From a virus: 40,053 bases of DNA. Shown here one piece after another: positions 2,300 through 28,707 of the stretch. The translations under genes and the position numbers were made by a program. Numbering within the stretch: the stretch's first letter is position 1; each line of letters starts with the position of its first letter. The stretch covers positions 1 to 40,053 of the IMG/VR virus record IMGVR_UViG_3300026472_000012; one strand, written 5' to 3'. The notes beneath the pieces are model-generated. The model ran no database searches and was not told the origin of the DNA. It saw only the letters and a program-made list of their open reading frames with translations.

Positions 2300-3451
2300 T
2301 TAGCGGTTCACATTCACTAAAACATCAACAGAATGAATAGCACCTGCAAGCTTAACTGCGACTTGAATTGGTGTTGCTTTACGTGCTTCACGATCCGCTT
2401 GAGATTGCCCATCAATCGGATTTGAATATACGTAATAGCCTTTTGTTAATGTATCGCCAGTTTTAAGTACACCAAATGGTTCGCCATTCCAAACACCAGG
2501 CGCGACCATACCATTCGTCACGGCTTGCTCTAAAGCATGTTCAAGAACAGAACAATGACGATTCATACCACCTTCTGTTTGCGGTATCTTGGTTGGGCTG
2601 GTGTAGTGCAGATTCCAAAGGGCTGTTTGTAGATAGTTTTGCAACCAATCCAAACCATGACGTTCATCAATAAACGTGCCACTACACATCACGCCCTCTT
2701 GAATAATGGCAGTGTCATTATTGTATTCAGCAAATACGTTGCAGCTCTTTTCCTTGAGAGTAAATGCTTCACTGGTACGCAGATATTCAGCGGCAATGGT
2801 TGGTTCTTGTTTAAATTTAAGCGTAATAGCTGTGTTATTTGCTAAGAAGTTTACGGCAAATGTTCTAGATAACAGTGAAACAACAGCATAAGGCGAATCA
2901 GATGAGTACTGAATCAATGTACGTTCAAACTTACGTTGATTTAGTTTATAAGCAATATCCGAAGGTAAAGCATCACCGTATTTGGGCGTTTTTACCTCTG
3001 GATCTTGTGTTGTAAAACCAACGATTCGATAGGGTACAGACGCTTCAATAAATTCAGAAACGGAGATAATGTCATTATCTGTAGCGATAGGTGCAGCTAC
3101 AGCCAAACCATACCAAGCATTTGAAGCATCAGCACAAGCTTGAACAGCTTCTAAAAGAGTTTCAGGTTGCTCTAGTTCACTTCCTGCCTGTACCCAACGA
3201 CCGATATATACAATTGTTGGACGAGGGTTTTGGGCAAAGAATTTAAGTGCAGCGTTATATTCAGGATCCATAGTCCCAAAGTCTTCAGCAACTTCAGTGA
3301 TGGATGAATAAGGTCGTACTCGTTCAAGATTTGAAATAACAGGTGTCGAGCCTAAAATTAATAATGAGCCAAAACTTCGAGTTTGGGCTGCTAATGGTGT
3401 TAAGGACATTTGAACGTTAACAACCATATCCACAGGTAATGCTGCGGCCAT
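2300..3451 (-). CDS. Tail sheath protein (DUF3383-like, by recollection)
   Basis: 383-aa ORF upstream of the tube gene in the tail module. Confidence 0.7.
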   Translation of the reverse strand: MAAALPVDMVVNVQMSLTPLAAQTRSFGSLLILGSTPVISNLERVRPYSSITEVAEDFGTMDPEYNAALKFFAQNPRPTIVYIGRWVQAGSELEQPETLLEAVQACADASNAWYGLAVAAPIATDNDIISVSEFIEASVPYRIVGFTTQDPEVKTPKYGDALPSDIAYKLNQRKFERTLIQYSSDSPYAVVSLLSRTFAVNFLANNTAITLKFKQEPTIAAEYLRTSEAFTLKEKSCNVFAEYNNDTAIIQEGVMCSGTFIDERHGLDWLQNYLQTALWNLHYTSPTKIPQTEGGMNRHCSVLEHALEQAVTNGMVAPGVWNGEPFGVLKTGDTLTKGYYVYSNPIDGQSQADREARKATPIQVAVKLAGAIHSVDVLVNVNR

Positions 3452-5698: not shown

Positions 5699-6724
5699 TT
5701 ATAAACCATCAGCGTAGTACGCAGTTTCTGGGTAAACCCACTCAACTGCACCAAGACGACCGAAATATGTCGTCAATTGACGTAAATCACGATATTCAAG
5801 TGGAGTACGTTGTAAAGGCACTAATGGGAAGCGAACACGGTTTTCAGATTGCGTATAAGTCATCATACGATCTGTATTACCAACACCACGCTTAACACAC
5901 CATTTTGATGGTTGAATATCTAATGGTTTACCATTGACTGACATGCAGAGGTTATTGATTTTTAAATATTCTAAAACAGAGATATTGCCTGCTTCACTCA
6001 CAACACGTGTTGTTAACCAACCAAATTGAACAGGAGGTAACAGCAATTTATCTGGACATACAGCGAAGCCAGAAGCTACCCATGCATTATTCAAAATCAG
6101 ATTGACATCATCGACGATCTGTTGCGGAGTTGCTGTTGACCAAGACGTATTGACATTGGTAGCACCAACTTTACTTGAGTTCAATAAACCTTCTAAACCA
6201 AGCTGCTCATCACCAATATAGACTTGCTCATCAACATCCATATTGTATTTAAGCATTAAGCCGCTATGTTTTTGTGCATCAACTGGACGACCCACCTTCA
6301 ACGCGGATTCTAACTCAGGCAAAGTAAAGCCAATTTGCATCGCCCATAATGTTAATGGAGACGCTGTTTTACCGATATCCAAAGCAATGCCTTGAATCGC
6401 ATCAGTGTTTTTACCGACCCAAGACTTACCATTGCCTGATTGTCCACCTGCAGCTGCAAATGTGCTGTTGGTAAATGATGATGTCTCATCAGCAATCGAT
6501 ACATCAGAACGTAAATCGATATCACGTGTCCAAGTCACCGATGCTAATGGTTCATGCATGGTTTGGTCTAAACGTTCAAGTTCACCGACTAAGAAAGCGC
6601 CTGAACTGTCTACTGTTCGCTGATCAAATGTCATCATATGATCGCGAGTGTGTGCACGTACAGAAGTTGATGTACCCATAGATACAGCTTGAGCCATTGT
6701 GCTGGCCAAGAGTAATTTCTTCAT
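5699..6724 (-). CDS. Major capsid protein (DUF2184-type)
   Basis: 341-aa ORF following the protease/scaffold and cement-protein genes. This is the gene order typical of the DUF2213/DUF2184 head module. Confidence 0.75.
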   Translation of the reverse strand: MKKLLLASTMAQAVSMGTSTSVRAHTRDHMMTFDQRTVDSSGAFLVGELERLDQTMHEPLASVTWTRDIDLRSDVSIADETSSFTNSTFAAAGGQSGNGKSWVGKNTDAIQGIALDIGKTASPLTLWAMQIGFTLPELESALKVGRPVDAQKHSGLMLKYNMDVDEQVYIGDEQLGLEGLLNSSKVGATNVNTSWSTATPQQIVDDVNLILNNAWVASGFAVCPDKLLLPPVQFGWLTTRVVSEAGNISVLEYLKINNLCMSVNGKPLDIQPSKWCVKRGVGNTDRMMTYTQSENRVRFPLVPLQRTPLEYRDLRQLTTYFGRLGAVEWVYPETAYYADGL

Positions 6725-8618: not shown

Positions 8619-10481
8619 TTAACTTGGCACAGGTATTAAGTAATAACATGAATCAATCACAATCGTTTGTCCGTTATTATTTCTCGTAATCCAATCAATA
8701 CCATTAGGAGGCAAAGTTTTTCCTGCATTTGCATAGGTCATCAATTCTATTCTTGTAGATCTTTTCTGCAACCCATCCATACCTCCAGGTTCATAATCTG
8801 ATCCATCAAACGGCTTGAGAGTTAAATAAAATTCATCTTTAAATTGCTCTTCAGTTTTCATTGGACCTATACAGTCTGTTTCAATAAAATATGCATAATT
8901 AGAATCCCAATCCGTCCATCCCCCATCCCAACGAACATTTACACTATCTGAAGCTGTACTGTCTATTGAAAGAGCTATAGTATTTGATGTGGTTTTTTCT
9001 AGTTGAAATCCTCTGTTGGCTATAAAGTAAGAATCAACATTGTAATATGTGACTTTATAACCTGCTGCCTCAAGTATTGGTTTGTAGTGTCCATAAATTT
9101 GATTTAAAGCATCATTATAATCAGATGGAGTAAAACTAAAGACACCGCCTAAGTTACTTAAAACTTCTCCAGTTACTAAATCAATTTCTTTAAGCAATGT
9201 TGTATTTACAGTTCCATAAGCTAAACCACTAGTGCCTTTATTAACTCCTAAAAAAGTTTGCTTAACTGTTAAATCTTGCTTGATTTCGACTTCGGAAAAC
9301 TCCACGTCTATATCATTACCAATAGAACGAATTAAATCATTTAAATAACGTGATAATGAATAATATTTAGATGAGATATTATTTGGTACTTTTAAAGCAA
9401 GAACATTTGGAACATATCTATACTCATTATCTTTAAGCTCTCGTAATTCACGTTCTAATTCAAACGACCATACTTCGCTATTTGTATCTAAATTAGTAAT
9501 TTTACAAGCAATACATAAAACGTCTGAGTCTTTATAATTGTAGTCAATATTTTTTAAAACTACGGGAGTAACATGTTCTGCTAAGCAAGTATCATCAGCT
9601 TGTGGAGCTAAACAGAATATAAATGAACCATCTTCATCTAGCATAAAAGATTGATTATTAGACCATGTAGCTTGAAGTGGATCAAATTGTGGTTTTGGAG
9701 TTGGTATTAATTTAAAACGATGAGGGACTGAATCTTTATTTTCTAATAACCAAAAACCATCCCAATCAGTATTAATTTTTCTTGATATATCAATTGGAAT
9801 TGCTTGAATAATATCATTGCCATTCACTCTACCCAACTCATAACTGTCCCCATCAAATTCCATAGTCCAATTTATTACTCCATCAAATAAAGGTGCTGGT
9901 TCAAATATAATTTTTGAAGTTGCCCCTTCACATGAAATAATAGAACTAGACTGAGCAGACAAGCACACACCATTTCGATTTGCATCAAATGAAATTACAG
10001 TAGGATTTTCACTAAAAAAAACTTTTTCTAGATTTTGATTATCAGGAATCACTCTATGTTCCAAGCGTACATCTTGATTCGAGTTATTCTTTATAAAAAT
10101 TGAATCCTTCCACTCATATCCACTTGGAGGTGGAAATGGAGGCAAAATTGTGGGACTTGCTTCAATATAATCTGGTGGATTTTTAAATTCGACATCATTA
10201 ATAATAAACTTTTCACTTTCTGGAAATATTGTACTTTCATTTACTTTAATGAGCACTGCACGATGCATTAATACTGTACCTGTTGCTCCAGCACAACTGA
10301 TACTAGGAAGGTTTACACCACAAATACCGACTTCAGTAATCGTATGATGATTTTCACCAATACGCACCCCAATTGAGATTGGTTGAGCACAAGCAAACTG
10401 TGGTTTAATCACCCCGTTTACAGTTTCTAAAAATTTCCAAACACCAAATTGGATAGTGTCTCCAAATTTTAAATCTTTCAC
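8619..10481 (-). CDS. Accessory protein, long paralog (620 aa), unknown function
   Basis: GTG start 5 nt after GAGGAT. The N-terminal ~70 aa closely match the N-terminus of the 10713..11639 product. The gene is AT-rich relative to its neighbours by eye. Confidence 0.85.
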   Translation of the reverse strand: MKDLKFGDTIQFGVWKFLETVNGVIKPQFACAQPISIGVRIGENHHTITEVGICGVNLPSISCAGATGTVLMHRAVLIKVNESTIFPESEKFIINDVEFKNPPDYIEASPTILPPFPPPSGYEWKDSIFIKNNSNQDVRLEHRVIPDNQNLEKVFFSENPTVISFDANRNGVCLSAQSSSIISCEGATSKIIFEPAPLFDGVINWTMEFDGDSYELGRVNGNDIIQAIPIDISRKINTDWDGFWLLENKDSVPHRFKLIPTPKPQFDPLQATWSNNQSFMLDEDGSFIFCLAPQADDTCLAEHVTPVVLKNIDYNYKDSDVLCIACKITNLDTNSEVWSFELERELRELKDNEYRYVPNVLALKVPNNISSKYYSLSRYLNDLIRSIGNDIDVEFSEVEIKQDLTVKQTFLGVNKGTSGLAYGTVNTTLLKEIDLVTGEVLSNLGGVFSFTPSDYNDALNQIYGHYKPILEAAGYKVTYYNVDSYFIANRGFQLEKTTSNTIALSIDSTASDSVNVRWDGGWTDWDSNYAYFIETDCIGPMKTEEQFKDEFYLTLKPFDGSDYEPGGMDGLQKRSTRIELMTYANAGKTLPPNGIDWITRNNNGQTIVIDSCYYLIPVPS

Positions 10482-10712: not shown

Positions 10713-11639
10713 TTAAATGCCTATCAAGGTTGCAGTACCGCATGAATGAGCAACCATTTCGTTAACCACTGCGTTAGGGAATAACTGGTTGTAAATATCA
10801 CCCTCTAACATAGTACGAATAAAAGTAATCGTTATTGGATCGCTAGATAATTCAGCATTTACACCGCTAAGTCTGAATTTACCTGTTTGACCACTATCGT
10901 AACTCCATAAATCAAAGTTTATACCGTTACCACCGCCAGTAGTTGTACTGATATTGATGAAAGGATATAAAGCAATTAGATCATTAATCATCATGCGGAC
11001 TAAAACAGATAACTCAGTCCCTACTGGATAGTCAACTACTTGGAATGTAGCAACTTCATTTACACCATGATTAGGTGCATCAACTTTATACTGAATCGTA
11101 ACTGTTCCAGCGACAGCTAAACCGCCTTCATGCATTTCTAGAGTGTTCGGATCACATTTCTTAGCTAAGCAAAATGTTAAACTACCATCCTCATTTTCCA
11201 TGAATGTGTCATTACCATAGGCATTTGAATAACGAGCACCTATAGTTGGTATTAAGCGTATGCGATGATTATTTGGCGAAAGATTACCAAAGTACATAAA
11301 ACCATCATAATCCGCATAAATTTTATCGCTAAAGTGATTTGTAATGTAGTTTTGCAGTAAGTCTGTTGAGGACGGATAAAAGACTCCGTTTAGCTCCATA
11401 TTCCAATAACCGCCAAAACTTCCAAAATTCATTTTTTCAGATGCTCCAACACAGCTAATATCTGGTGGATTTACACTACAAACACCAACTTCTGTAATTG
11501 TCTGGTGGTCTTCACCGATTCGTACGCCAATTGGTATTGGTTGAGCGCATGCAAAGTGTGGCTTTATAACATCGTCAACATTCACTAAAAATTTCCAAAC
11601 ACCGAATTGAATGGTGTCTTTAAACTTTAACTCTTTCAC
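10713..11639 (-). CDS. Accessory protein, short paralog (308 aa), unknown function
   Basis: Start reassigned to GTG 11639 (VKELKFKDTIQFGVWKF...), behind GAGGAT with the same spacing as its paralog. The track start overlaps the Mu-F gene. Confidence 0.8.
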   Translation of the reverse strand: MKELKFKDTIQFGVWKFLVNVDDVIKPHFACAQPIPIGVRIGEDHQTITEVGVCSVNPPDISCVGASEKMNFGSFGGYWNMELNGVFYPSSTDLLQNYITNHFSDKIYADYDGFMYFGNLSPNNHRIRLIPTIGARYSNAYGNDTFMENEDGSLTFCLAKKCDPNTLEMHEGGLAVAGTVTIQYKVDAPNHGVNEVATFQVVDYPVGTELSVLVRMMINDLIALYPFINISTTTGGGNGINFDLWSYDSGQTGKFRLSGVNAELSSDPITITFIRTMLEGDIYNQLFPNAVVNEMVAHSCGTATLIGI

Positions 11640-11641
11640 TT

Positions 11642-12382
11642 TTAATCCTCTGGTATTACTGGTTCTGGGTAACAACGGCAGTTATAAATGCATCCAGCAT
11701 GAGCGCGTATGCCACGCTTACTATTGACAATTGGTGGTGAATCCCAGTGGATAAATATGCCATTTAATAAATGATGATCATGTCTAACATCACCATCGCC
11801 AGAATCTCTCCAGATATAACCTTGACTACCGATAGATTTAGCTCTGGCTTGAGTGAACACAGTGCTTGCTTTAGATGTTTCTGTTCTTGCAATCGTATTC
11901 GCTCTGGATTTCGTCACATGCCCAGTGGCCATAATTAATCCTGCAATCTCTTCGGAACGAATGCCTTCGCTAATTGCACGACTTGCCAAATCCTGTACAC
12001 GATTTGCAGCATTGAGTGGCAGCGACTTAATTAGCGAAACTTGTTCTGATAATAGTTGCTGATAAACGACACCAATATCCGTATTACGAATTTGATCCCG
12101 TAAACCTTTCGACATGTCTTTTGCATAAATCATCCATGTCTTTTCATCACGAAGTGCTACATCTGTTAATACTCGACCTGCAGCACTGAATGCCCATTCA
12201 TCTAATGTTTCTGCATAACGACGTAAGGCAGTAATTATTGATGGATAAACATCTTGGTCATAAACATCGAAGCCTTTTATTATTGAATCAATGTAAGTTG
12301 CAATCTGACGTAACTGCCGACCATATTTGATTTCAACTTTACGTGCCCGCATTGGTGTATGGCGGTTTTGCATACTATCCAC
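11642..12382 (-). CDS. Head morphogenesis protein (Mu F / SPP1 gp7 family)
   Basis: C-terminal motif GYIWRDSGDGDVRHDHHLLNG...CIYNCRCYPEPV is typical of the family. It lies downstream of the portal. Confidence 0.8.
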   Translation of the reverse strand: MDSMQNRHTPMRARKVEIKYGRQLRQIATYIDSIIKGFDVYDQDVYPSIITALRRYAETLDEWAFSAAGRVLTDVALRDEKTWMIYAKDMSKGLRDQIRNTDIGVVYQQLLSEQVSLIKSLPLNAANRVQDLASRAISEGIRSEEIAGLIMATGHVTKSRANTIARTETSKASTVFTQARAKSIGSQGYIWRDSGDGDVRHDHHLLNGIFIHWDSPPIVNSKRGIRAHAGCIYNCRCYPEPVIPED

Positions 12383-12469
12383 CGATTAAAAAACCTAATG
12401 AAATGAATACTTAAAGAGTTTTGGACTTGAATCCTTCTTTTGTAGATGGATCTGTACAGCCAAAGCTCT

Positions 12470-12497
12470 TTGTTATTTTTAAAGTTTGAGCTAAAAT
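12470..12497 (+). promoter_or_regulatory. Candidate sigma70 promoter, antisense to the late operon
   Basis: TTGTTA (12470..12475), 16-nt spacer, TAAAAT (12492..12497). Confidence 0.4.
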
Positions 12498-12503
12498 AGT
12501 CAG

Positions 12504-12725
12504 TGCATGGGCGAGGACTTCCCGATGGCTTGATTATTCAATGCACAGGGTCCGTGCCGTTGGGTCAGTTTCAAACTGGTCTGCTTCCGCAAAGGTAACG
12601 CCTTGGGAAGCCTAAAGAATGAAGGACGCCGCCCCTAACAGGTCATATGATACTGAGTAGGATAAAAGAATCATGGTAACAGTGAAGTCTTTATTAGAAG
12701 CCCAATTTATGGGCTTTTATTTTTT
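12504..12725 (+). ncRNA. Candidate ~220-nt structured small RNA in the portal/Mu-F intergenic gap
   Basis: No ORF of 60 aa or more on either strand across 12383..12716. The segment is GC-rich with nested and alternative helices. It has a promoter-like element upstream and a + strand intrinsic terminator at its end. Confidence 0.35.
12698..12725 (+). terminator. Plus-strand intrinsic terminator abutting the portal stop codon
   Basis: AAGCCCA-ATTTA-TGGGCTT followed by TTTATTTTTT on the + strand. On the - strand the stem is followed by CTAATAAAG, with no U-tract. Confidence 0.6.
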
Positions 12726-14702
12726 CTGCAATCCACCTTTATTTTTGTTCATTTTTTCATTTTTCTGATTTAAACGAATACCCTCAAGTTGATGCTCTGA
12801 TTTAAAATGTGCTGATTCAAAATCATAAACTCTTCTCACATCACTCCATCTCAAACAAACTGTAAAATACTGTTTATTAATCATTTCTTTTGCAATCAAT
12901 AAATCATTTCCCTTACTAAGAAGATGTGTACGAGGATGCTGAATCGTTGGAATAATCCTATCTAACATTTTTGCACGCTCTTGGCTTAATACTCGTTCTT
13001 CATTCCAATGACTTGCACCTGGTGGTTTTTCAGAATAGGCATGATTCGTTTCACCAAAATTGACTTCAATTGGTGTAGGCTCAGTTTTTTTATTTGAATA
13101 CACACCTAACGCATAAGTCTTGCCTTTGTAGTGAGTATCCCAATAATTTTGGGCTTCAGCCATTGTTGAAATAGTTTCAGATGAAGGAAGACTTTCAGGT
13201 GCCGGTAAGACATTACGTCCACTTTTACCACCATTTGCACTGGACATTGGGTGGATTGGAGCAAACCCAAGATTTAAAGCATTCTTACCAGATCGCCCAG
13301 TTTCGCTAAATTGTCCATTTTCATCACGTGGATGATCTTCCTCTATCCAAGTTCCAGCATCCACTGTGTTTTCAGAATTAGGCGCAGGTGGTTTGTCATC
13401 TGCCTGTTCAATCTCGATATTTGTAATACTGGACCAAATACCAGTAATCTCACTTGATTGACGTAACTCTTTAAGCGCAGTTTGTTCAGTCACAATACCA
13501 TTTTCAAAAGCACTCATGACTGTTGAAGTCACAGCGCTGGCAATAGATGCTTTTTTCTCATCATCCAACTGCCATAGCGATGCGAAATCAAACTTAAATG
13601 ATTTAGGCAATTCACAGCCCAACTCAGATAAGCAGACAACTTGTAATAACGTTTGCAAAGGTGTTCTTAAACGGCGTTCTTGTTGCTGATTGATATTGTC
13701 GTAATAGTTACTTAAATCACTTTCACCTGTTGAGTTCATACCTGCAGGTGATTGACCAAATAAACGCACTAATGGGATTTGCACAGCACCAGAAATCTGC
13801 TGACCAAATTGCAAAAGCACATTATCCAAACCTGTGAAGCTATATTGATGTGTTTCAAATGAATCACTCGAATCCATTAAAGTTAAACCTTCATTGGATT
13901 GGAATTGACGAATTTGATTGATTTGCTTTAATAACGCTTCATAAACTGCACCACCTTTGGCGATGATTTCACGCAATTTATCAACTTTATAAGTACGTAA
14001 ATGTGCCTTATAAACCAATTGACCTGCACCCAATGTCGCACTATCAAAAATAGTCAAACGATCAATGAGCCGCTCAATAACTGACTGTCCCCAAAGGTTC
14101 TCTGATATTGACTGCCAATATGGTAAATCAACCCCATCAATACGAATGATGCGTGAGTGATGAATACGTTGATTGCAGAAACCCACAGCATCAGAAATCA
14201 CATCATAGTATTTTGGCTTGCCATAATGCGGACCATACTCTGTCACTAAATCTTGTAAGCTTGGCACAACCATCCAACGGTCCAAGACCATCACACCTTT
14301 AAATGCACCTTTAGCAATCGTTTTTGTATTAAGTGGTGTTTCAGATCTTTGACCGTCAATCAACATAACTGCAAGACAACCACCATATAAACGTCCCCAT
14401 TTAATGGTGTTACACAGTTTGTCCCAAATTTCTAAACGATCCATGGCTTGGTTGATGACTTCAACATCTTCAGGGTTATCAAAGCCACGAATATTTAACC
14501 CTTCACGGGTCATATCTTCAGCAACAACATCTACAACTTGACCAACAACCCAACTTGAACGATACATTGCTTCAAGTTTCAGACGATCACGACTTACAAA
14601 GTCAAACCCATACTGTGATTGATCATGCTGATTACCAGAACCAAGCCCAACACGAGCAGCAAAATTTTGAAAACTGTCAATTGTAGATTTTAGAATGCTC
14701 AT
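12717..14702 (-). CDS. Portal protein (DUF1073-type) with a long C-terminal extension
   Basis: 661 aa directly downstream of TerL. The last ~230 aa begin with a low-complexity linker and the motif EEDHPRDENGQF. Confidence 0.8.
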   Translation of the reverse strand: MSILKSTIDSFQNFAARVGLGSGNQHDQSQYGFDFVSRDRLKLEAMYRSSWVVGQVVDVVAEDMTREGLNIRGFDNPEDVEVINQAMDRLEIWDKLCNTIKWGRLYGGCLAVMLIDGQRSETPLNTKTIAKGAFKGVMVLDRWMVVPSLQDLVTEYGPHYGKPKYYDVISDAVGFCNQRIHHSRIIRIDGVDLPYWQSISENLWGQSVIERLIDRLTIFDSATLGAGQLVYKAHLRTYKVDKLREIIAKGGAVYEALLKQINQIRQFQSNEGLTLMDSSDSFETHQYSFTGLDNVLLQFGQQISGAVQIPLVRLFGQSPAGMNSTGESDLSNYYDNINQQQERRLRTPLQTLLQVVCLSELGCELPKSFKFDFASLWQLDDEKKASIASAVTSTVMSAFENGIVTEQTALKELRQSSEITGIWSSITNIEIEQADDKPPAPNSENTVDAGTWIEEDHPRDENGQFSETGRSGKNALNLGFAPIHPMSSANGGKSGRNVLPAPESLPSSETISTMAEAQNYWDTHYKGKTYALGVYSNKKTEPTPIEVNFGETNHAYSEKPPGASHWNEERVLSQERAKMLDRIIPTIQHPRTHLLSKGNDLLIAKEMINKQYFTVCLRWSDVRRVYDFESAHFKSEHQLEGIRLNQKNEKMNKNKGGLQKK

Positions 14703-14714
14703 TTCGTTCTCGTA

Positions 14715-16373
14715 TTAAAGCTTGCTCCAAATATCGAGAGCAGAAACTAAAGGGCAATAACAAATCATCACAGCGTCTGCTCGGTTAGGAGAAATTGCGC
14801 CATCAGGTTGTTTATTGACTAAGATTTTTCCAACACCATTTTTCATGTATGTTGGCTGTGATAATTCCATGACAAGCTGTGTCATTTCGTTTGGATCAAT
14901 ATCCTGACTGGATAGAGAAATGAGCATGTCTGAGTCATACTCCTGACCATTCAATGCTCTATAGGTGTTTTGAAATCTAAGACGTAAGTACCACCAAGAC
15001 TGTGCTTTAAGGTTGGCAAAGAAATCTTTATTCAAGCGTTTCTCAACAATCTCACCTTCAGGATCATGTACAGAGGCAGAACCTCGGAATGGTTCAACAT
15101 TGACCTCATCCCAGCCTTTCTCACGTTGATTTTCATTAATCACACGCGCATCGCCTCGAACACCCGCACCAAGACCATCTGCATCGTAATAAAGTGTTAA
15201 GTATTTATTTTCTAGGCAAATATCCATTGCCTTTTGTGTGGTGAAGAAAATATCATCGCCACGCCCCGACCAAGTGCTTAAATGATCTAAAACAATGCCA
15301 TGACGACCTGCCATCGAGTTTTTATCACGACCTTCATCGGCAACATCTAATCCAGAAATTCTGTCGCCTGTAGGTTCTATGTTTAATTTTAAATGAGCAT
15401 CAATTGCTGCTTGCACCCAAACACTTGGAATCAATACACCTTCAATCGAAGCGGCATAGTTAATATCTATTTCCTGCGCAAGTATTACAGGGTCAAGTGT
15501 GGCAAGCTGTTTCTCATACCATGGATGAATCTCTTTACCACGTAACTCAACCATCCAATTCTTATCGGGGTTCAGTCGCCATGGCATAGTGAATACAGAA
15601 AATCGCCCACTAAATCGGTCTTGATAAAATCGATTACCAATCCCATTTGGTGTAGAACCTTTGATCACAACATTGGTATTCTGAGAGATTGCTGCATCCG
15701 CTGCTTCAGGGTTTGCAACAAATCCCCATTCATCAAGTAAGTAAATTGTTGTACGACCACCGCGTCCAATATTGTCGCCTGCTTCACCCGTAAGCGTTGC
15801 ACCATTATCAGGATTAATAATTCTTAAGTAGTTGTCATGTTCACGGCGATTATAATTTTTAGGTTTCATCCATTCAGGTAGCTTATTGAGCATATCTCTG
15901 AATTTATGAAACAAAGTTTTAGGATCACCTTTCTTATCAACTAAATCTTCTTTACGACTTCCAACACCAGCAGCGAAACCTTCAACGAATAACCAATGAT
16001 GCAGAAAATACCCAAGAACAACATAGGACATCCCCTCATCACGAGATTTTTCAATCACACCACCTGTTTGTGTGTCTTCTCTCTCTTGTAACCACGTCAC
16101 CAACTCTGCTTGTTTAGGACGTAGAACAAATGGAAGATTTGCAGGTAATCCAAAAGCCATTCCTCGAGGATCGTAAGTCCATACCCAATGATTAAACCAA
16201 TGCACAGGATCATGACGACATTTTTCAAGTTCAGCTTGTTGTGCTACTTCAGATTGCTCTATTACAGCCTTGTAGTAATAGCGTCGAGTCATTTCAGAAA
16301 TGGTTGCAGGTAAACGGACATCTATCGTCCATGCTTTAATCAGTGGTGTAATTTCATCAATGGCATAACTCAT
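14715..16373 (-). CDS. terL: Terminase large subunit
   Basis: 552 aa, in an ATGA overlap with the TerS stop and upstream of the portal. Size and position are typical. Confidence 0.85.
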   Translation of the reverse strand: MSYAIDEITPLIKAWTIDVRLPATISEMTRRYYYKAVIEQSEVAQQAELEKCRHDPVHWFNHWVWTYDPRGMAFGLPANLPFVLRPKQAELVTWLQEREDTQTGGVIEKSRDEGMSYVVLGYFLHHWLFVEGFAAGVGSRKEDLVDKKGDPKTLFHKFRDMLNKLPEWMKPKNYNRREHDNYLRIINPDNGATLTGEAGDNIGRGGRTTIYLLDEWGFVANPEAADAAISQNTNVVIKGSTPNGIGNRFYQDRFSGRFSVFTMPWRLNPDKNWMVELRGKEIHPWYEKQLATLDPVILAQEIDINYAASIEGVLIPSVWVQAAIDAHLKLNIEPTGDRISGLDVADEGRDKNSMAGRHGIVLDHLSTWSGRGDDIFFTTQKAMDICLENKYLTLYYDADGLGAGVRGDARVINENQREKGWDEVNVEPFRGSASVHDPEGEIVEKRLNKDFFANLKAQSWWYLRLRFQNTYRALNGQEYDSDMLISLSSQDIDPNEMTQLVMELSQPTYMKNGVGKILVNKQPDGAISPNRADAVMICYCPLVSALDIWSKL

Positions 16374-16888
16374 AGCTTACCGTTAATTGCTAATCGTGAT
16401 AGCTGTTCTGGTGTGAGATTTTCTAATTCTGTTAGTGAAAGTGGCGTATTCACATGTTGTATCGGACCACCTTCAGCCCCCGTATGTTCATGTTTCACTT
16501 TTTCACTAAATAATCCGAGATGCTTTCCAATCAATTCATTCGCTTTAATCGCACTGCTAGAATCAAATTTATATTCACCTGTTGAGTTTCCTTCACGGTC
16601 TTTGACTTCCTCCGCCTGCATACATCTTTCAGCAATTGTTTTTAAATTGTTTAAAACATAATAAGCATCGATTCCGAGTTCTTTGGCTCGTTCTTCTTGT
16701 AGAAACTTAATCCTTGCTTGAACTAATGGTTGTTTAAAAGCTCGCCAACCTGCAACTCGATCTGAATATCCCGCTTCTTTAGAAGCTTTATTTACAACAT
16801 TAGAAATGAGATATGCTTGGGCTAAATGTTCCCAACGATCATTTTCTAAAGGTTCACTCCCCGCTGGAAGTTCGATTTGTTCTTCCAT
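16370..16888 (-). CDS. terS: Terminase small subunit (Terminase_2/P27-like)
   Basis: 172 aa with the segment SKEAGYS...AGWRAFKQPLVQARI...AIKANELIGKHLGLF, typical of this TerS family. Confidence 0.75.
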   Translation of the reverse strand: MEEQIELPAGSEPLENDRWEHLAQAYLISNVVNKASKEAGYSDRVAGWRAFKQPLVQARIKFLQEERAKELGIDAYYVLNNLKTIAERCMQAEEVKDREGNSTGEYKFDSSSAIKANELIGKHLGLFSEKVKHEHTGAEGGPIQHVNTPLSLTELENLTPEQLSRLAINGKL

Positions 16889-17054
16889 CTTTTAAACCTG
16901 TTTCAATATTATTTATAAATTCGCTAATCTGTTTAACTCGCATTTCACACTGATTCTTAAATGCCCACGTTGAATTAAGATGATTAAGTGAGAGTAAGCG
17001 TGCTTTATCTTGTTCGAGTAGTTTTAGATTCTTTTGCGCTTCAACCCTATTCAT
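16854..17054 (-). CDS. Small coiled-coil protein, first ORF of the late operon
   Basis: 66 aa. The ATG is preceded by GAGGAAAG, and the 3' end overlaps terS by 35 nt. Confidence 0.5.
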   Translation of the reverse strand: MNRVEAQKNLKLLEQDKARLLSLNHLNSTWAFKNQCEMRVKQISEFINNIETGLKDGRTNRTSSGE

Positions 17055-17084
17055 CCCACTTTCCTCTAGGCATTAAAAAAACCC

Positions 17085-17168
17085 TGTCAAATTAATGTCA
17101 GAGTTTTTGTCAAAACATTTTTATTTAAAATCATCTCTTTAAAAGATAACTTTGAATAAAAATGTCAA
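17085..17168. repeat. Phased TGTCA(A/G) repeats upstream of the late genes
   Basis: TGTCAA at 17085, TGTCAG at 17096 and TGTCAA at 17108 (spacings of 11 and 12 nt), plus TGTCAA at 17163. Confidence 0.6.
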
Positions 17169-17182
17169 AGATTTTGGCAAAT

Positions 17183-17209
17183 AAAAAAAGCCCATCTTTT
17201 TGATGAGCT
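17183..17209 (-). terminator. Strong intrinsic terminator between the late promoter and the late genes (tR'-like)
   Basis: Minus strand: AGCTCATC-AAAAA-GATGGGCT (one mismatch) followed by TTTTTTT. Confidence 0.75.
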
Positions 17210-17252
17210 TTAATCTGTAGTGGATTACCATAACTTCGTCCACTATAGCTGA

Positions 17253-17281
17253 AATATGCCATATTGCGTTTAAACGGTCAA
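17253..17281 (-). promoter_or_regulatory. Candidate late promoter (PR'-like) downstream of the Q gene
   Basis: Minus strand: TTGACC (17281..17276), 17-nt spacer, CATATT (17258..17253). It lies ~45 nt upstream of the terminator. Confidence 0.45.
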
Positions 17282-17285
17282 TACC

Positions 17286-17483
17286 CTAATTGGAGTACAA
17301 AACAAGAACTTCAAAAGGATAATCTGTTTGTTTTTTTTCATTTGCAAATTCAGACGCAATATTCACAATCTTTTCAATTTTTACATTGATATTATGACGA
17401 TCAGAGTATTCTAACCATTTGTTAATTTGTTCTGATAATCCTTCAGAGTTATAGGCACTAAATGTTCTTGTACGTTGAGTCAT
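17286..17483 (-). CDS. Hypothetical small protein
   Basis: 65-aa ORF packed directly after the Q gene. Confidence 0.5.
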   Translation of the reverse strand: MTQRTRTFSAYNSEGLSEQINKWLEYSDRHNINVKIEKIVNIASEFANEKKQTDYPFEVLVLYSN

Positions 17484-17485
17484 AT

Positions 17486-17920
17486 TTACACCATTTTCAA
17501 AAAGTTATATTTACCAAGTAGATAAAATCTAGCACATCCAATTAAAATATTCACCTGCCCTTTAGACTGTTTTGTGATCTCAGCCACTGCACTAAGACTA
17601 CGATTTTCAACCTTATGCTTAACTAAACACATCACTGCGTACTTTGCTTGATAATCAATTGAATTGGAGTTGAACACGCTTCTCAGCAATGCCTGTACCT
17701 GCTCTGCCTCAAAGTCACTAATCTCACAACGGATATAACACTTCGAGTTACGTGGCGTTTTATCTGCTTCACGAATCAACCAATAAATCTGATTAACATG
17801 TAGACCATCAGGCAATTCACCGCCTTTCAAACGAGCGGTTTCACACCAAGCACCAAATTGCTCAAGCCATCCATCAATTGTGTATTTAGACCAATCCATC
17901 ACTCTCACCGCTACGTTCAT
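17486..17920 (-). CDS. Late-gene antiterminator (Q-type)
   Basis: 144 aa. The N-terminal DGWLEQFGAWC resembles the LERWGAW signature of Q proteins. It is the last regulatory gene before the promoter/terminator/late operon. Confidence 0.6.
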   Translation of the reverse strand: MNVAVRVMDWSKYTIDGWLEQFGAWCETARLKGGELPDGLHVNQIYWLIREADKTPRNSKCYIRCEISDFEAEQVQALLRSVFNSNSIDYQAKYAVMCLVKHKVENRSLSAVAEITKQSKGQVNILIGCARFYLLGKYNFLKMV

Positions 17921-18608: not shown

Positions 18609-18949
18609 ACTTCCACCACTTTAATTTTTACCAATCCACCCTTAACCACATTTCCACGTTTTACTAGCAACTCGTCAAACTGTTCATCATCTTCACATAA
18701 ACCACACTTCACCAAACTATCTAAAACCGCTTTTAAGTGATTGTCGATATCTCTAGTACGTCGATCAGGAAAATGAAAAGTAATCTCTGCTTTGAGCCTA
18801 GCTGTGCTTTTGAGAGGCTTAACAAATAAACTCACAATCTTCTGAAAATTTTTTGCTCGCTGACTTAGGTAACGCCTTTTCCCTGCTGCCACCCAGTAAT
18901 GGTTCACACTAGGCGGAATCATGGCAATTTCACAATTGAGTAAACTCAT
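18605..18949 (-). CDS. rusA: RusA-family Holliday junction resolvase
   Basis: 114 aa with PPSVNHYW and RDIDNHLKAVLDSL...EDDEQ, characteristic of RusA. Confidence 0.8.
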   Translation of the reverse strand: MSLLNCEIAMIPPSVNHYWVAAGKRRYLSQRAKNFQKIVSLFVKPLKSTARLKAEITFHFPDRRTRDIDNHLKAVLDSLVKCGLCEDDEQFDELLVKRGNVVKGGLVKIKVVEV

Positions 18950-21603: not shown

Positions 21604-21685
21604 GTTTACCTTTATAAACTTTTAGTTTCCATTAGTAAACCATAAGTTTATTTCTAAATCAATATGAATGTTTACTATAGGAAAC
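21604..21685. promoter_or_regulatory. OR-type divergent promoter/operator region
   Basis: 16-bp sites GTTTACCTTTATAAAC (21604..21619) and GTTTACTATAGGAAAC (21670..21685), plus the palindrome TAAACCATAAGTTTA (21636..21650). Confidence 0.65.
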
Positions 21686-21703
21686 ATTAAAGAGGATGTT
21701 TTT

Positions 21704-22447
21704 ATGAGCACTATCAGTGATCGAATAATTCAAAGAATGACTGAGCTAAAAATTCGACAAGTTGATTTAGTTGAAGCTACAGGTGCAACTAAAGGCGCAG
21801 TCTCAAAATGGGTGGCTGGGACTAATATCCCTAAAGCTGAATTTTTATCACCTTTAGCAAATGTGCTTAAAACTTCTCAAAATTGGTTATTAACTGGCGA
21901 AAATGATCAAAGAAAAAATAACTTCAATATGCAGGAGTTTATGGATAAACACGGATTGACTCGAAAAGAAGAATCTTCTTTTGATGTCAATGAGATTCAT
22001 GAGCCTACTGTTGTTGACTATGAAATTGAAAATGGATTTATTTGGATAGATGTAGTGGAAGCGAACTTTTCATGTGGTACAGGTGAGTCGATAGAGTTTC
22101 ATTTTGATGTCATTAATGGAAAGTTCCCCTTTCCTCCATCATTTTTTCAAAAAAAATATGTTGACCCTAAATGCATGAGAATCATTAAAGCTAAGGGTGA
22201 CAGCATGTCTGACTTTATTCATGACGGCGACTTAGTAGGAATTGATATTTCTCAAACCGAAATAATAGATGGTGAAATTTATGCTGTTTATTTTGAAGGT
22301 GAAGGCATGATTAAGCAGATATTTAAAGAAGAAGGTGGAAAGTTAAGTCTTCACAGCCTTAATCCTAAATACCGTGATCGTGAAGTGAGTGAAATCAACG
22401 GGTTGAACTTTAAAGTAATGGGGCGTCAATTTTGGCGAGCTGGATAA
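21704..22447 (+). CDS. cI: CI-type repressor (XRE HTH N-terminus + S24 LexA-like peptidase C-terminus)
   Basis: Start ATG 21704 follows AGAGGA. Contains the HTH VDLVEATGATKGAVSKWVAG and the S24 motifs GDSMSDF...GEIYAV...GMIKQI. Confidence 0.9.
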   Translation: MSTISDRIIQRMTELKIRQVDLVEATGATKGAVSKWVAGTNIPKAEFLSPLANVLKTSQNWLLTGENDQRKNNFNMQEFMDKHGLTRKEESSFDVNEIHEPTVVDYEIENGFIWIDVVEANFSCGTGESIEFHFDVINGKFPFPPSFFQKKYVDPKCMRIIKAKGDSMSDFIHDGDLVGIDISQTEIIDGEIYAVYFEGEGMIKQIFKEEGGKLSLHSLNPKYRDREVSEINGLNFKVMGRQFWRAG

Positions 22448-27395: not shown

Positions 27396-27565
27396 AATGG
27401 TACTCTATGACGCAAGTAGCGAGTGAATTAGGTGTGTGTCTAAATACTTTCAAAAAATACTATTTAGAGAAGTATCCACCTGATCAGGAATTTGGAGTTC
27501 AAAAGAAATATACAGCTTCTACTTTGCTAAGGATGAAAAAAGAAATATTAAAGGAAGGCGCTTAA
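27392..27565 (+). CDS. xis: Excisionase / AlpA-like HTH protein
   Basis: ATG 27392 follows AGGAG (MKWYSMTQVASELGVCLNTFKKY). It is convergent with and adjacent to the integrase. Confidence 0.6.
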   Translation: MKWYSMTQVASELGVCLNTFKKYYLEKYPPDQEFGVQKKYTASTLLRMKKEILKEGA

Positions 27566-28707
27566 TTAGCGCCTTTCATCCAACGATCAACTTGTTCTGA
27601 ATACCACTTCATCAACTCTACTCTTTCATCCCAATATTCAGCTCTGTTGTAAATACCGCGAATACGATCTTTGGGAACGTGCGCAATTTGGTATTCAATT
27701 ACATCAGGTCTGAATAGTTTTGAGTTATTTGTGTGGGTAGAGAATAAAGATCGAAAACCATGTGTAACCATCTGCCCTGCATAACCATTTCGCTTAATGA
27801 TTGCTAAAATGCTTTCAGATCGGACATGCTCACCAGGATTGCGAGTGTGCTTAAAAATATATCCATTATCCGTCTTATGATCATACAGCTCTTTAAATAG
27901 CGTGTAAGTTTGATCAGTCAAAGGTACAACATGATCTCTACGCATTTTCATACGAGATGCTGGAATCACCCACTGTCTATTTTCTAAATCTATTTCCCCA
28001 CTATCCCAACGTGATTGAAGTAACTCAGAAATACGAACTGCTGTGTAACATGCGAGTTTAAGTGCGTGTAACAATTCTGGTGTAACATTGCTATGTGTTA
28101 CCCGGTTCCAAAACTCAGGCATCTGCTCTGCATCAAGACTCGGCATATTACGAACAGTTTGCTGCGGAATAACGTCAGAAATCAAAGTACATGGATTTTT
28201 TTGCGTATAGTCTGAAGCAATAGCAAAGTTAAAGATTTCATTTAGTAATCGTAGTGAACGTTTTGCGGTTTCTAGTGTTCCCTTATTCACGATTTCTTTT
28301 ACTTTCTTAACGATTATTTTTCTATCAACTTCATCAATCGGCTGATTTTTAAAATCTTCAGTAATATAATTCAGCCTATAAATAACTGTATCTATGTACT
28401 TTTTACTGGACCAACGCGGCGTCATCAGTTTAAGCCATTCTTCAATCACAGCATTTACAGATGGTGAATTTAGCATTTTGCCTTGTGCTTCAGCTTTACA
28501 CTGACGAGCTAACTGGCGGGCATCTTTGCACCCTAGCTCAGGGTATTCACCTAAATTCTTTCTAGTCTGTTTTCCATTTACCCGGTATGAAACGATCCAT
28601 TTCTTTTTACCTGTAGGAAATACATCAACTGACAAGCCCTCGCCATCTGCAAGTGAATATCTTTTTTCTTTTGGTTTTAAAGCTTTTACTTGTGAGTCTG
28701 AAAGCAT
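27562..28707 (-). CDS. int: Tyrosine integrase (P4-like, DUF4102-type N-terminus)
   Basis: N-terminal LSDSQVKALKPKEKRYSLADGEGLSVDV; C-terminal RISELL...HGFRSLFSTH...Y catalytic region. Confidence 0.9.
   Translation of the reverse strand: MLSDSQVKALKPKEKRYSLADGEGLSVDVFPTGKKKWIVSYRVNGKQTRKNLGEYPELGCKDARQLARQCKAEAQGKMLNSPSVNAVIEEWLKLMTPRWSSKKYIDTVIYRLNYITEDFKNQPIDEVDRKIIVKKVKEIVNKGTLETAKRSLRLLNEIFNFAIASDYTQKNPCTLISDVIPQQTVRNMPSLDAEQMPEFWNRVTHSNVTPELLHALKLACYTAVRISELLQSRWDSGEIDLENRQWVIPASRMKMRRDHVVPLTDQTYTLFKELYDHKTDNGYIFKHTRNPGEHVRSESILAIIKRNGYAGQMVTHGFRSLFSTHTNNSKLFRPDVIEYQIAHVPKDRIRGIYNRAEYWDERVELMKWYSEQVDRWMKGAN

Follow-up and report, generated by a model that had tools for sequence, protein, structure and literature searches.

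In type III toxin-antitoxin (TA) systems, such as ToxIN, CptIN and TenpIN, a non-coding RNA gene lies beside the gene of an endoribonuclease, and its RNA, which that enzyme itself processes to a stable and abundant species, binds and neutralises the protein in the context of phage-host conflict. Phages also make antisense RNAs, sar, oop and C4 among them, and prophages carry convergent type I TA pairs (txpA/RatA and bsrG/SR4), whose toxins are small membrane peptides and whose overlap, of at least 75 nt, is the working part of the system. On the protein side, domains such as LPD1, LPD3, InPase and SNF2 make up the "polyvalent protein" repertoire of phages and conjugative elements, and the MuF-type polymorphic toxins of temperate phages are comparable payloads of capsid proteins. 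Known nuclease payloads have been described with protein immunity partners or with none, and to our knowledge no dedicated convergent small RNA (sRNA) partner of such payloads has been described. Here we report on an sRNA gene that lies convergent to the gene of a predicted payload of this kind in a virus record (IMGVR_UViG_3300026472_000012, positions 1 to 40,053), whose entire length of 40,053 nt is referred to as the window. The window is a lambdoid-type prophage with a guanine-plus-cytosine (GC) content of about 38%, nearest to Acinetobacter phages. In its late operon, which lies on the minus strand, a gap at positions 12383-12716 separates the portal open reading frame (ORF; 661 aa, 12717-14702, minus strand) from the MuF-like ORF (246 aa, 11642-12382, minus strand), and the plus strand of this gap is a real, independently transcribed sRNA gene, complete from promoter to terminator. 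Its product may be the antidote of an RNase-like domain that forms the end of the portal protein.

The resemblance to type III TA systems is the closest one. In both cases a non-coding RNA gene stands beside the gene of a predicted endoribonuclease, the RNA is processed to a stable, abundant species, a link with phage-host conflict exists, and the neutralisation of a protein RNase by an RNA is also the mechanism that we propose here. The organization, however, is different. Instead of tandem repeats of 34-36 nt, the RNA of this locus is a single structured unit of about 120 nt; instead of preceding the protein gene on the same strand, upstream of a terminator, it is encoded downstream and convergently, under a promoter of its own; and the protein is by prediction not ToxN-like but PBECR/BECR-like (Barnase-EndoU-ColicinE5/D-RelE), a domain fused to virion proteins.

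The gap measures 334 bp, and on neither strand does an ORF in it reach 60 aa, the longest having 30-31 aa, while the GC fraction is 0.475 in 12500-12699 versus 0.30-0.40 in the flanks. These counts agree with an earlier note on this DNA, which had pointed out an ORF-free, GC-richer segment between the portal and MuF genes. A blastn comparison of the gap with 50,697 phage records of GenBank returned no match. The earlier note had also proposed a plus-strand promoter (TTGTTA-16-TAAAAT), an intrinsic terminator on the same strand and, between them, an RNA of about 220 nt transcribed on its own, antisense to the late operon, all of which have held up. Specifically, a consensus scan places a sigma-70 promoter at 12470..12497 of the plus strand (-35 TTGTTA at 12470-12475, -10 TAAAAT at 12492-12497, spacer 16), with a predicted start at about 12504-12505. 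As the number of promoter-like sites in the region is no higher than in shuffled sequences (5 found, 5.2 expected), the credibility of the promoter comes from its conservation alone: 16/16 distinct copies of the element have a -35 TTG... and a -10 TAnAAT/TATACT in the same register, despite differing surrounding sequence. The scan also finds the terminator, at 12695..12729 of the plus strand, with a stem of 10 pairs (12695-12719) followed by TTTTTTCTGC; it overlaps the stop codon and the last portal codons on the opposite strand, and a hairpin with a T-run is present on the plus strand in 15 of the 16 distinct copies, with stems differing from one to the other. The primary transcript, 12505..12725 on the plus strand, is delineated by RNA contigs and by a family match (nhmmer, 12501-12724, plus strand, E 1.8e-58), which is the single copy that the window holds.

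Acinetobacter prophages and metagenomes together yielded 19 copies of the family, of which 16 are distinct. An earlier, stricter DNA pattern had found no matches among viral or metagenome contigs, and 11 additional loci in IMG/VR and JGI metagenomes were recovered with a pattern built from two conserved blocks. The order of the elements on the plus strand is the same in each copy, that is, a -35 and a -10 (TATAAT, TAAAAT or TATACT), a block C, a hairpin HP-A, a block B, the hairpins HP-B and HP-C, a block A, an optional tail of 55-60 nt, and a final hairpin with a U-run. In the window, all on the plus strand, the alignments define the three invariant blocks as C (GCAnnnGCrAGGACUUCCCGAUGG, 12505..12528), B (CACAGGGUnnnUGCCGUUGGG, 12544..12564; CACAGGGUnnnUGCCGUUrGG across copies) and A (AAAGAAyGAAGGACGCCrCCC, 12614..12635), as well as the optional 3' tail (12636..12694), which is found in long-form copies and not in short-form ones. 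Three variable hairpins are intercalated: HP-A (12529..12543) and HP-B (UCAGUU-UCA-AACUGG, 12565..12579, the core of a hairpin at 12563-12581) emerge from the folding of the copies, and HP-C (12583..12611), with a conserved apical GUAAC motif, from covariation. Since the hairpin modules are combined differently among copies, recombination between copies must have taken place. A metagenome-assembled genome of A. bereziniae (locus L005) has the same portal-gap architecture as the window, and in a comparison of the two gaps long identical blocks alternate with dissimilar stretches, each of which is self-complementary. Tandem arrays reach three copies; in particular, the contig of locus L019 (1985-3449, also found in organism J, runs X30-X33) has three sRNA genes in tandem within 1.5 kb, with different hairpin modules, and looks like an array of variants whose neighbouring members are connected by RNA contigs. 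One copy, at L016, is truncated, its hairpin and U-run being replaced; this copy (8692-8846) lacks the terminator region and abuts an IS3-like transposase ORF (8885-9739), which suggests that an insertion sequence truncated it.

The sequence is present in many public sequencing runs, RNA runs among them. One metatranscriptome contig, with 99% identity to the window, extends over 12550-12718 and stops within the U-run of the terminator. Homologous RNA contigs of L019, short and isolated (2866-3015, 2870-3091 and 2872-3098), extend from the predicted start to the terminator, and the first of them begins (2865/2866) at the equivalent of the predicted start, 7 nt past the -10. What dominates is not the full transcript of 220 nt but a core of about 120 nt produced by processing. 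In four RNA libraries of one organism (J) the summed contig depth amounts to 1e5-7e5 at the core and to 4e2-3e3 at the 3' tail, the equivalent of 12636-12694 being 100-1000 times rarer than the core. The mature ends in L019 fall at 2875-2877 (5') and 2991-3002 (3'), and adapter junctions are found directly at positions 12514 and 12518 of the window. Transferred from the homologs to the window, the core has its 5' end at 12514/12515 and a ragged 3' end at 12624-12635, within block A, so that it spans approximately 12515..12635 of the plus strand, from GGACUUCCCGAUGG to GAAGGACGCCGCCCC. Given these ends, the primary transcript sheds a leader of about 10 nt, which contains the 5' strand of the helix P1 described below, together with everything past block A, terminator included; an RNase P-like maturation of the 5' end, of the kind that C4 undergoes from its longer precursor, is a possibility. 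Relatives of this sRNA are among the most abundant RNAs in public RNA-seq. Near-identical sRNA contigs also occur in runs X39-X49 under many organism labels, including a single-cell library and a "whole organism metagenome", and these are most simply explained by trace Acinetobacter, whose most abundant RNA gets picked up.

Homologous regions preserve the structure of the RNA through compensatory changes, as would be expected of the structured RNA that the earlier note had in mind. The case for structure rests on covariation and not on stability, because minimum free energies (MFE) do not separate the strands and folding z-scores are ordinary (-0.11 for the mature core, -1.7 for the full plus-strand transcript and -1.9 for the opposite strand). 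Covariation was computed on a MAFFT alignment of the copies (A4), in which the helix P1 occupies columns 1-7/48-54. In the window P1 is formed by GCAUGGG (12505..12511, plus strand, in the leader) and UCCGUGC (12551..12557, plus strand, in block B). It is paired in 99% of cells, and three of its seven pairs are compensatory (GGA/UCC, GAG/CUC, GAA/UUC, UGG/CCG). The outer stem of HP-C, the extended hairpin that the earlier note had drawn at 12583-12611, is likewise confirmed by compensatory changes: it occurs as GCUUCC/GGAAGC, GUUGCC/GGCAAC, GUUACC/GGUAAC, AUUGAC/GUCAAU and GUCUGU/GCAGAC, with 92.6% of cells paired and four compensatory pairs in the MAFFT register, which is offset for alpha-type copies. 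The covariation score is 0.197, versus 0.087 in shuffles; 0/500 shuffles attain it, and shifting the partners by one to three columns makes it collapse. The other helices of the earlier note fared less well. Of the 12563-12581 hairpin, the core (HP-B) stands, in that a hairpin of unrelated sequence occupies the same place in 13 of 16 copies, while its outer G-U pairs are not conserved. The GGGCG/CGCCC helix (12509-12513/12630-12634) pairs in 51% of cells, with three positions unpaired in 12-13 of 16 copies, and the conserved 5' helix is P1 in its stead; the proposed CUUCCC/GGGAAG switch pairs in 65% of cells, with no covariation. As for HP-A, different sequences fold into a hairpin in the CUUGA... 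and CAUUAC... copies, and the UUGUAUUUAUACUU form (7/16 copies) folds marginally. A further candidate helix, H1, joins the 3' part of block B to block C (CCGAUGG/CCGUUGG); it is 97% paired, has two G-U pairs valid on the plus strand only and appears in the centroid fold of the mature core, but it is invariant and thus offers no covariation for or against it.

The pairings also bear on which strand is functional. Five independent G-U pairs of HP-C would be A-C mismatches on the other strand, with none in the opposite sense, and the same holds for the U-G pair of P1 in the window, valid on the plus strand only, and for the G-U pairs of P1, HP-B and HP-C in general. In addition, the adapters of the four libraries are always in one orientation, the read 2 adapter before the 5' side and the read 1 adapter after the 3' side; read 1 is antisense to the plus strand and, assuming the common dUTP-type kits, the RNA is therefore the plus strand, in agreement with the sharp 5' end and ragged 3' end of the mature species. 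A functional RNA on the minus strand, such as a processed piece of the late mRNA distantly related to C4, would fit the same adapter orientation if the libraries were of the ligation type, with read 1 sense. An MFE comparison does not separate the two strands, and a G-rich 5' stretch GGGGYGG could pair with YGCYY through G-U pairs of the minus strand only. This pairing, however, is supported only insofar as G accepts both C and U, and the abundant species does not include its 3' strand. Moreover, the minus strand has no promoter, several loci have a sense terminator just upstream, the RNA contigs end at the plus-strand terminator, no C4 match is found at E<=10, and all the informative G-U pairs favour the plus strand. 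The C4-like minus-strand reading was rejected on the same ground of G pairing with either pyrimidine, and gave no covariance-model match. Nor is the gap a decayed protein gene or an inert spacer, an alternative that the earlier note had kept in view: a conserved, transcribed, multi-copy element is no decayed gene, and strong conservation and expression exclude that reading. A minus-strand RNA, or none at all, is thus very hard to credit.

The RNA falls outside the known families, as the earlier note had supposed. Rfam 15 at the gathering score gave no match in the whole window and none at the element in 14 loci; in evalue mode only chance, terminator-like matches (E 0.01-8) were obtained for 12300-12800 and for L019 1900-3500, and ARAGORN found no tRNA or tmRNA gene in the window. 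Full-text and supplement literature searches with the sequence blocks gave no relevant match. TRF reported no repeat array in 12383-12727, the sole array nearby being TTTTTTCA x2.6 at 12744-12764, within the portal ORF. A. baumannii possesses several families of very abundant multi-copy sRNAs, of which Group 1/I is C4-like and processed at a GGW motif (PMC5320573, PMC6182133). In common with these and with C4 of P1/P7 (RF01695), the RNA described here is phage-derived, is trimmed to an abundant, stable species starting at GG(A/U), and combines a conserved scaffold and variable loops in many Acinetobacter copies. It differs from C4 in length (about 120 nt versus 77), in having its own terminator, in the lack of a scaffold alignable with the C4 of phage P1 and in its helices, which are not those of that RNA; the RF01695 model, with its 12-bp terminal stem, UUCG hairpin and a'/b' loops, gave no match at E<=10 on either strand of the window and of three other copies, and none at the gathering score in 14 loci. 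The family may be equal to one unnamed A. baumannii sRNA group ("Group 3/III"), for which those papers give no sequences.

The very high abundance and the trimmed ends are reminiscent of stable RNAs, and raise the question of a protein sponge (CsrA titration through AGGAG/AAGGAC) or of a housekeeping-like RNA, tRNA-like or 4.5S-like, with maturation by RNase P; in either case the target would be a host factor and not the phage RNase. Three conserved GGA motifs would be in keeping with this, as would a possible tRNA-acceptor-like stem of 7 bp, GGACUUC/GAAGGAC, followed by GCCACCC, which is seen in some MFE folds and whose first pair coincides with the mature 5' end. The stem is, however, invariant in Acinetobacter, and hence devoid of covariation, and is broken in a distant homolog (L026, GGACGGU/GAAGGUC), for which reason it was rejected as a candidate. 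Furthermore, the GGA motifs are three only, none of them in a hairpin loop, ARAGORN and Rfam report no tRNA-like or known stable RNA, and mimicry of the 16S rRNA 3' end (E. coli rrsH) is at chance level, with 207/300 and 290/300 shuffles scoring at least equally. Such a role appears highly unlikely.

In related phages (IMG/VR L001-L003; Ab105-1phi) the portal proteins are 86% identical to that of the window over residues 1-442 and the MuF proteins 84% identical, and the portals end at 455-470 aa, abutting or overlapping the start of MuF. The shorter portals and the missing gap mean that the window has about 990 extra bases, made of 219 in-frame portal codons and the gap of 334 bp. On this comparison, the sRNA gene was inserted jointly with the final ~219 portal codons. 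The extension comprises residues 443-661 (12720..13376, minus strand). It matches no Pfam family at E<=10 and no PHROG, and a profile search in an index of 5.8 billion proteins gave fewer matches than the single-sequence search; an exhaustive phmmer search yielded 54 relatives of the domain. The same domain is the C-terminus of proteins of about 380 aa (P0002-P0005), which open with a capsid-associated anti-restriction module of the Hdf/DarA_N kind (phrog_1620 E 9e-30, DarA_N 7.5e-5, PDB "Hdf" chain E 0.018). In addition, residues 20-155 of the window's domain query match residues 561-689 of P0008 (phmmer E 2.1e-28), a protein whose residues 606-691 pass the Pfam cut-offs for PBECR2 (40.2 bits; cut-off 27.1) and PBECR3 (36.1; cut-off 30), and other relatives carry LPD1, LPD3, InPase or SNF2-helicase domains or belong to a different portal family. 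Because of the homology to P0008 and of these informative fusion partners, the portal extension is most likely a PBECR-like domain, that is, a predicted RNase payload of the Barnase-EndoU-ColicinE5/D-RelE fold borne by capsid-resident proteins, a kind of domain found on proteins that are internal to the capsid or ejected from it. The similarity with the PBECR domains of polyvalent proteins (PF18810/PF18812) extends to the position, as a C-terminal nuclease-like payload on capsid-internal proteins (portal, Hdf/DarA_N), and to the homologs in giant proteins with LPD1, LPD3, InPase and SNF2 domains, the difference being that the domain of the window is under the Pfam thresholds. Foldseek, run on a low-confidence model of the domain, gave a best E of 0.05, with non-significant hits to RelE, HigB2 and BrnT at probability 0.14-0.47.

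RNA gene and domain stay together in close relatives and in several distant ones. In 7/7 close relatives, which represent three N-terminal contexts, the sRNA is convergent with and downstream of the domain gene, its terminator overlapping the last codons, and the element also follows the genes of the 380-aa proteins (L008, L009). The sRNA gene is one half of a mobile cassette, the other half of which is the RNase-like portal extension, and is not specific to the portal/MuF junction. Across the family, copies lie after the domain in three kinds of proteins (two kinds of portal fusion and the Hdf-like fusions), directly upstream of terS (five loci), upstream of a NinB-like gene, after lipoprotein genes and in the tandem triplet. 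Among distant homologs of the domain, with protein identities of about 38-41% and GC contents of 37-65%, the convergent arrangement is found again, in distantly related bacteria. In L026 (GC 37%) the gene is followed by a gap of 276 bp with an antisense unit (nhmmer E 1e-4) composed of TTGACT-17-TACAAT, GCAGUUGCGAGGACGGUUCGAUGG, a new HP-A, ACAGAUUAACUGCCGUAG, AAAAACGAAGGUCGUACC and a terminator. L033 (GC 51%) has a clear sRNA homolog, GCAGUUGCGAUUGGGGCCGAUGA ... ACAGGUUGGCUGCCGGUGGGGU ... CCGAAAGACCGAAGGGCCACGA, then a terminator, and L028 (GC 65%), with TTGAAT-16-TATACT, a CUGCCGUAG block and a terminator that overlaps the KGPL-stop codons, probably carries a homologous sRNA; antisense terminators overlap the ORF end in L031 and L034 as well. 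P1 still pairs in the distant members, as GCAGUU/AACUGC or as GCAGUU/GGCUGC, with U-G pairs on the sRNA strand only, and HP-A takes forms such as GAUG-UUUAA-CAUC and ACCU-GAAA-AGGU. In L033 the called ORF continues through the antisense of the RNA, so that the C-terminal tail of this and similar homologs is probably a gene-calling artefact. Many domain homologs in the databases have similar odd tails, about 50-60 residues past a conserved GPL motif (e.g. ...LLFFFR...), which suggests the same antisense read-through elsewhere; tailed homologs include L033 859-1653 (P0022) and L031 1501-2256 (P0028).

The constant orientation invites a different interpretation, namely that of a cis-antisense regulator, type I-like or immunity-like. 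Its partner would be the complementary late mRNA that reads through the gap, or else the portal/RNase mRNA at its 3' end, and cleavage or head-on interference would hold down the expression of late or effector genes, both in lysogens and in relatives that superinfect them. In all 19 copies, in fact, both flanking ORFs (the nearest of at least 90 aa) are encoded on the opposite strand, close and distant modules alike have a terminator that reaches into the end of the ORF, and the arrangement resembles both the convergent, 3'-overlapping type I systems of B. subtilis prophages and sar, oop and C4. With type I TA pairs the locus shares its prophage location, its convergence and an antisense RNA that extends into the partner's ORF at the 3' end. 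Nevertheless, the overlap consists here of the terminator tail, that is, the U-run and the stop codon (about 10-30 nt), and the conserved structured core lies outside it; the partner is a 661-aa portal fusion with an RNase-like domain of about 220 aa, the gap itself having no ORF of 60 aa or more. Perfect pairing, moreover, needs no conserved structured core, and the insertion sites are too diverse for a single cis target, orphan copies being devoid of a partner mRNA. The opposite-strand bias fits a cis-antisense role and selection against a strong terminator in the sense direction of an operon equally well, and several loci have, immediately before the element, a sense terminator that belongs to the upstream gene, which argues for an independent plus-strand gene. 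We consider a cis-antisense function unlikely.

The reading that we favour, to which we would assign a probability of roughly 0.4, is that the processed sRNA is an RNA antidote, or immunity factor, of the predicted RNase domain, and that lone and tandem copies are orphan immunity genes. According to this model the sRNA would be made constitutively, and in large excess, in the lysogen, and the likeliest way for it to neutralise the enzyme is to bind it, either as a structured inhibitor or as a decoy substrate, in the manner of a type III antitoxin. Neutralisation would protect the cell in which virions are assembled, and the sRNA might also shield lysogens from the same type of effector delivered by related phages. 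Copies that have no domain beside them would, like the tandem arrays with their differing hairpin modules, act as orphan immunity genes, the variable hairpins would set specificity, and the constant antisense orientation would avoid the termination of phage operons. The antidote reading accounts at once for the deep linkage, for a promoter that is constitutive and an RNA made in excess, for the variable hairpins, for the orphan and tandem copies and for a large conserved scaffold, which, unlike a short seed, would suit the binding of a protein. A more general claim, according to which domain and sRNA constitute an unrecognised, widespread RNase/RNA-antidote module, with a BECR payload on virion proteins, a non-repetitive convergent sRNA and orphan or tandem copies forming an RNA immunity repertoire against the RNases of competing phages, seems to us rather unlikely as it stands.

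Several points weigh against the antidote model. What is documented between the two partners is their genetic linkage, the RNase activity, the toxicity and the RNA-protein contact being predicted. As to the protein, the domain of the window is below every Pfam threshold and its assignment to PBECR is transitive; PBECR2 is reached by only 1/34 short homologs (E 0.0014), and the AF2 model has a mean pLDDT of 56 (about 70 in the alpha+beta core) and no significant fold match. A portal-fused domain, in addition, sits inside the capsid and may never meet cytoplasmic RNA. As to the RNA, the strandedness of the libraries is deduced from adapter orientation, the kit not being on record, and the processed form was measured on the homologous copies of organism J rather than on the window's own copy. 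Finally, as to the linkage, 12 of the 19 Acinetobacter copies do not adjoin the domain, P0009, P0015 and the domains inside giant polyvalent proteins have no downstream sRNA, and in three other distant contexts of the domain the sRNA unit is lacking or unclear. Within Acinetobacter, repeated recombination at so conserved a multi-copy sequence might give the impression of linkage, although it is harder to invoke for the linkage in distant taxa.

The distribution of the copies is also what would be expected of an ordinary prophage "moron" sRNA, which would be expressed in lysogens and act in trans on mRNAs of the host or the phage, pairing with them through either the single-stranded invariant blocks or the variable loops. 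Here the adjacency to the domain would be incidental, for example because of a recombination hotspot at module borders. The sRNA has its own promoter and terminator and a high expression, most copies are indeed away from the domain at typical moron sites (upstream of terS, in the nin region, after lipoprotein genes), and A. baumannii offers precedents in its several very abundant multi-copy sRNA families (PMC5320573, PMC6182133). On the other hand, typical Hfq-type sRNAs keep the terminator and U-tail that are missing from the abundant species here, the three invariant blocks of more than 20 nt go far beyond seed length, and the retention of domain and sRNA at about 38-41% protein identity and GC contents of 37-65% would be left unexplained. 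Complementarity to the rest of the prophage is at chance level, with 9-12-mers only and the best 12-mers at E 0.4. One of these involves the apex of HP-C (AGGUAACGCCUU, 12593-12604), whose 12 nt are the perfect complement of a stretch of the RusA-like mRNA (18867-18878), the E of 0.4 being that of chance in a 40-kb window. Regulation in trans is a possibility to be reckoned with, though a doubtful one.

From a practical standpoint, Acinetobacter is a priority pathogen genus whose prophages are poorly annotated for RNA, and a family missing from Rfam and yet abundant in RNA-seq runs labelled with many unrelated organisms is an annotation gap of practical value. Recognition of the sRNA would also correct the false C-terminal tails that gene callers translate from its antisense. 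If the link with the domain were functional, this would be the first RNA partner for a large uncharacterised class of nuclease payloads on virion proteins of phages and conjugative elements. If confirmed, it would extend RNA antitoxins beyond the repeat-based type III systems and would explain the tandem, hypervariable sRNA arrays of prophages as phage-against-phage immunity.

The remainder of the window is in line with its prophage nature. It has a CI-like repressor (21668-22447, plus strand), a Cro-like gene, O/P-like replication genes, RusA, a NinI-like phosphatase, a Q-like antiterminator (17486-17920) and an integrase (27562-28707), and the late operon proceeds on the minus strand in the order TerS (16370-16888), TerL (14715-16373), portal, MuF-like protein, DUF2213 protease and major capsid protein. 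Between the Q-like antiterminator and terS, a stretch of about 600 bp (16889-17485) has no ORF of 80 aa or more and is the expected site of the late promoter and its terminator; nhmmer finds no sRNA copy there, although five related prophages have one immediately upstream of terS. The match of the MuF-like ORF (246 aa) to the head-morphogenesis family phrog_324 is confined to positions 67-320 out of 624, and the two minus-strand ORFs that follow it (10713-11675, 320 aa; 8619-10481, 620 aa) both match the uncharacterised family phrog_5283; they may be further virion-delivered payload proteins or the parts of a split MuF fusion. Lastly, in an Acinetobacter prophage contig (L011), the Pseudomonadales-1 RNA (RF03046, 124 bits; 5882-6038) and a tRNA (6091-6163) lie about 1 kb from a copy of the sRNA.

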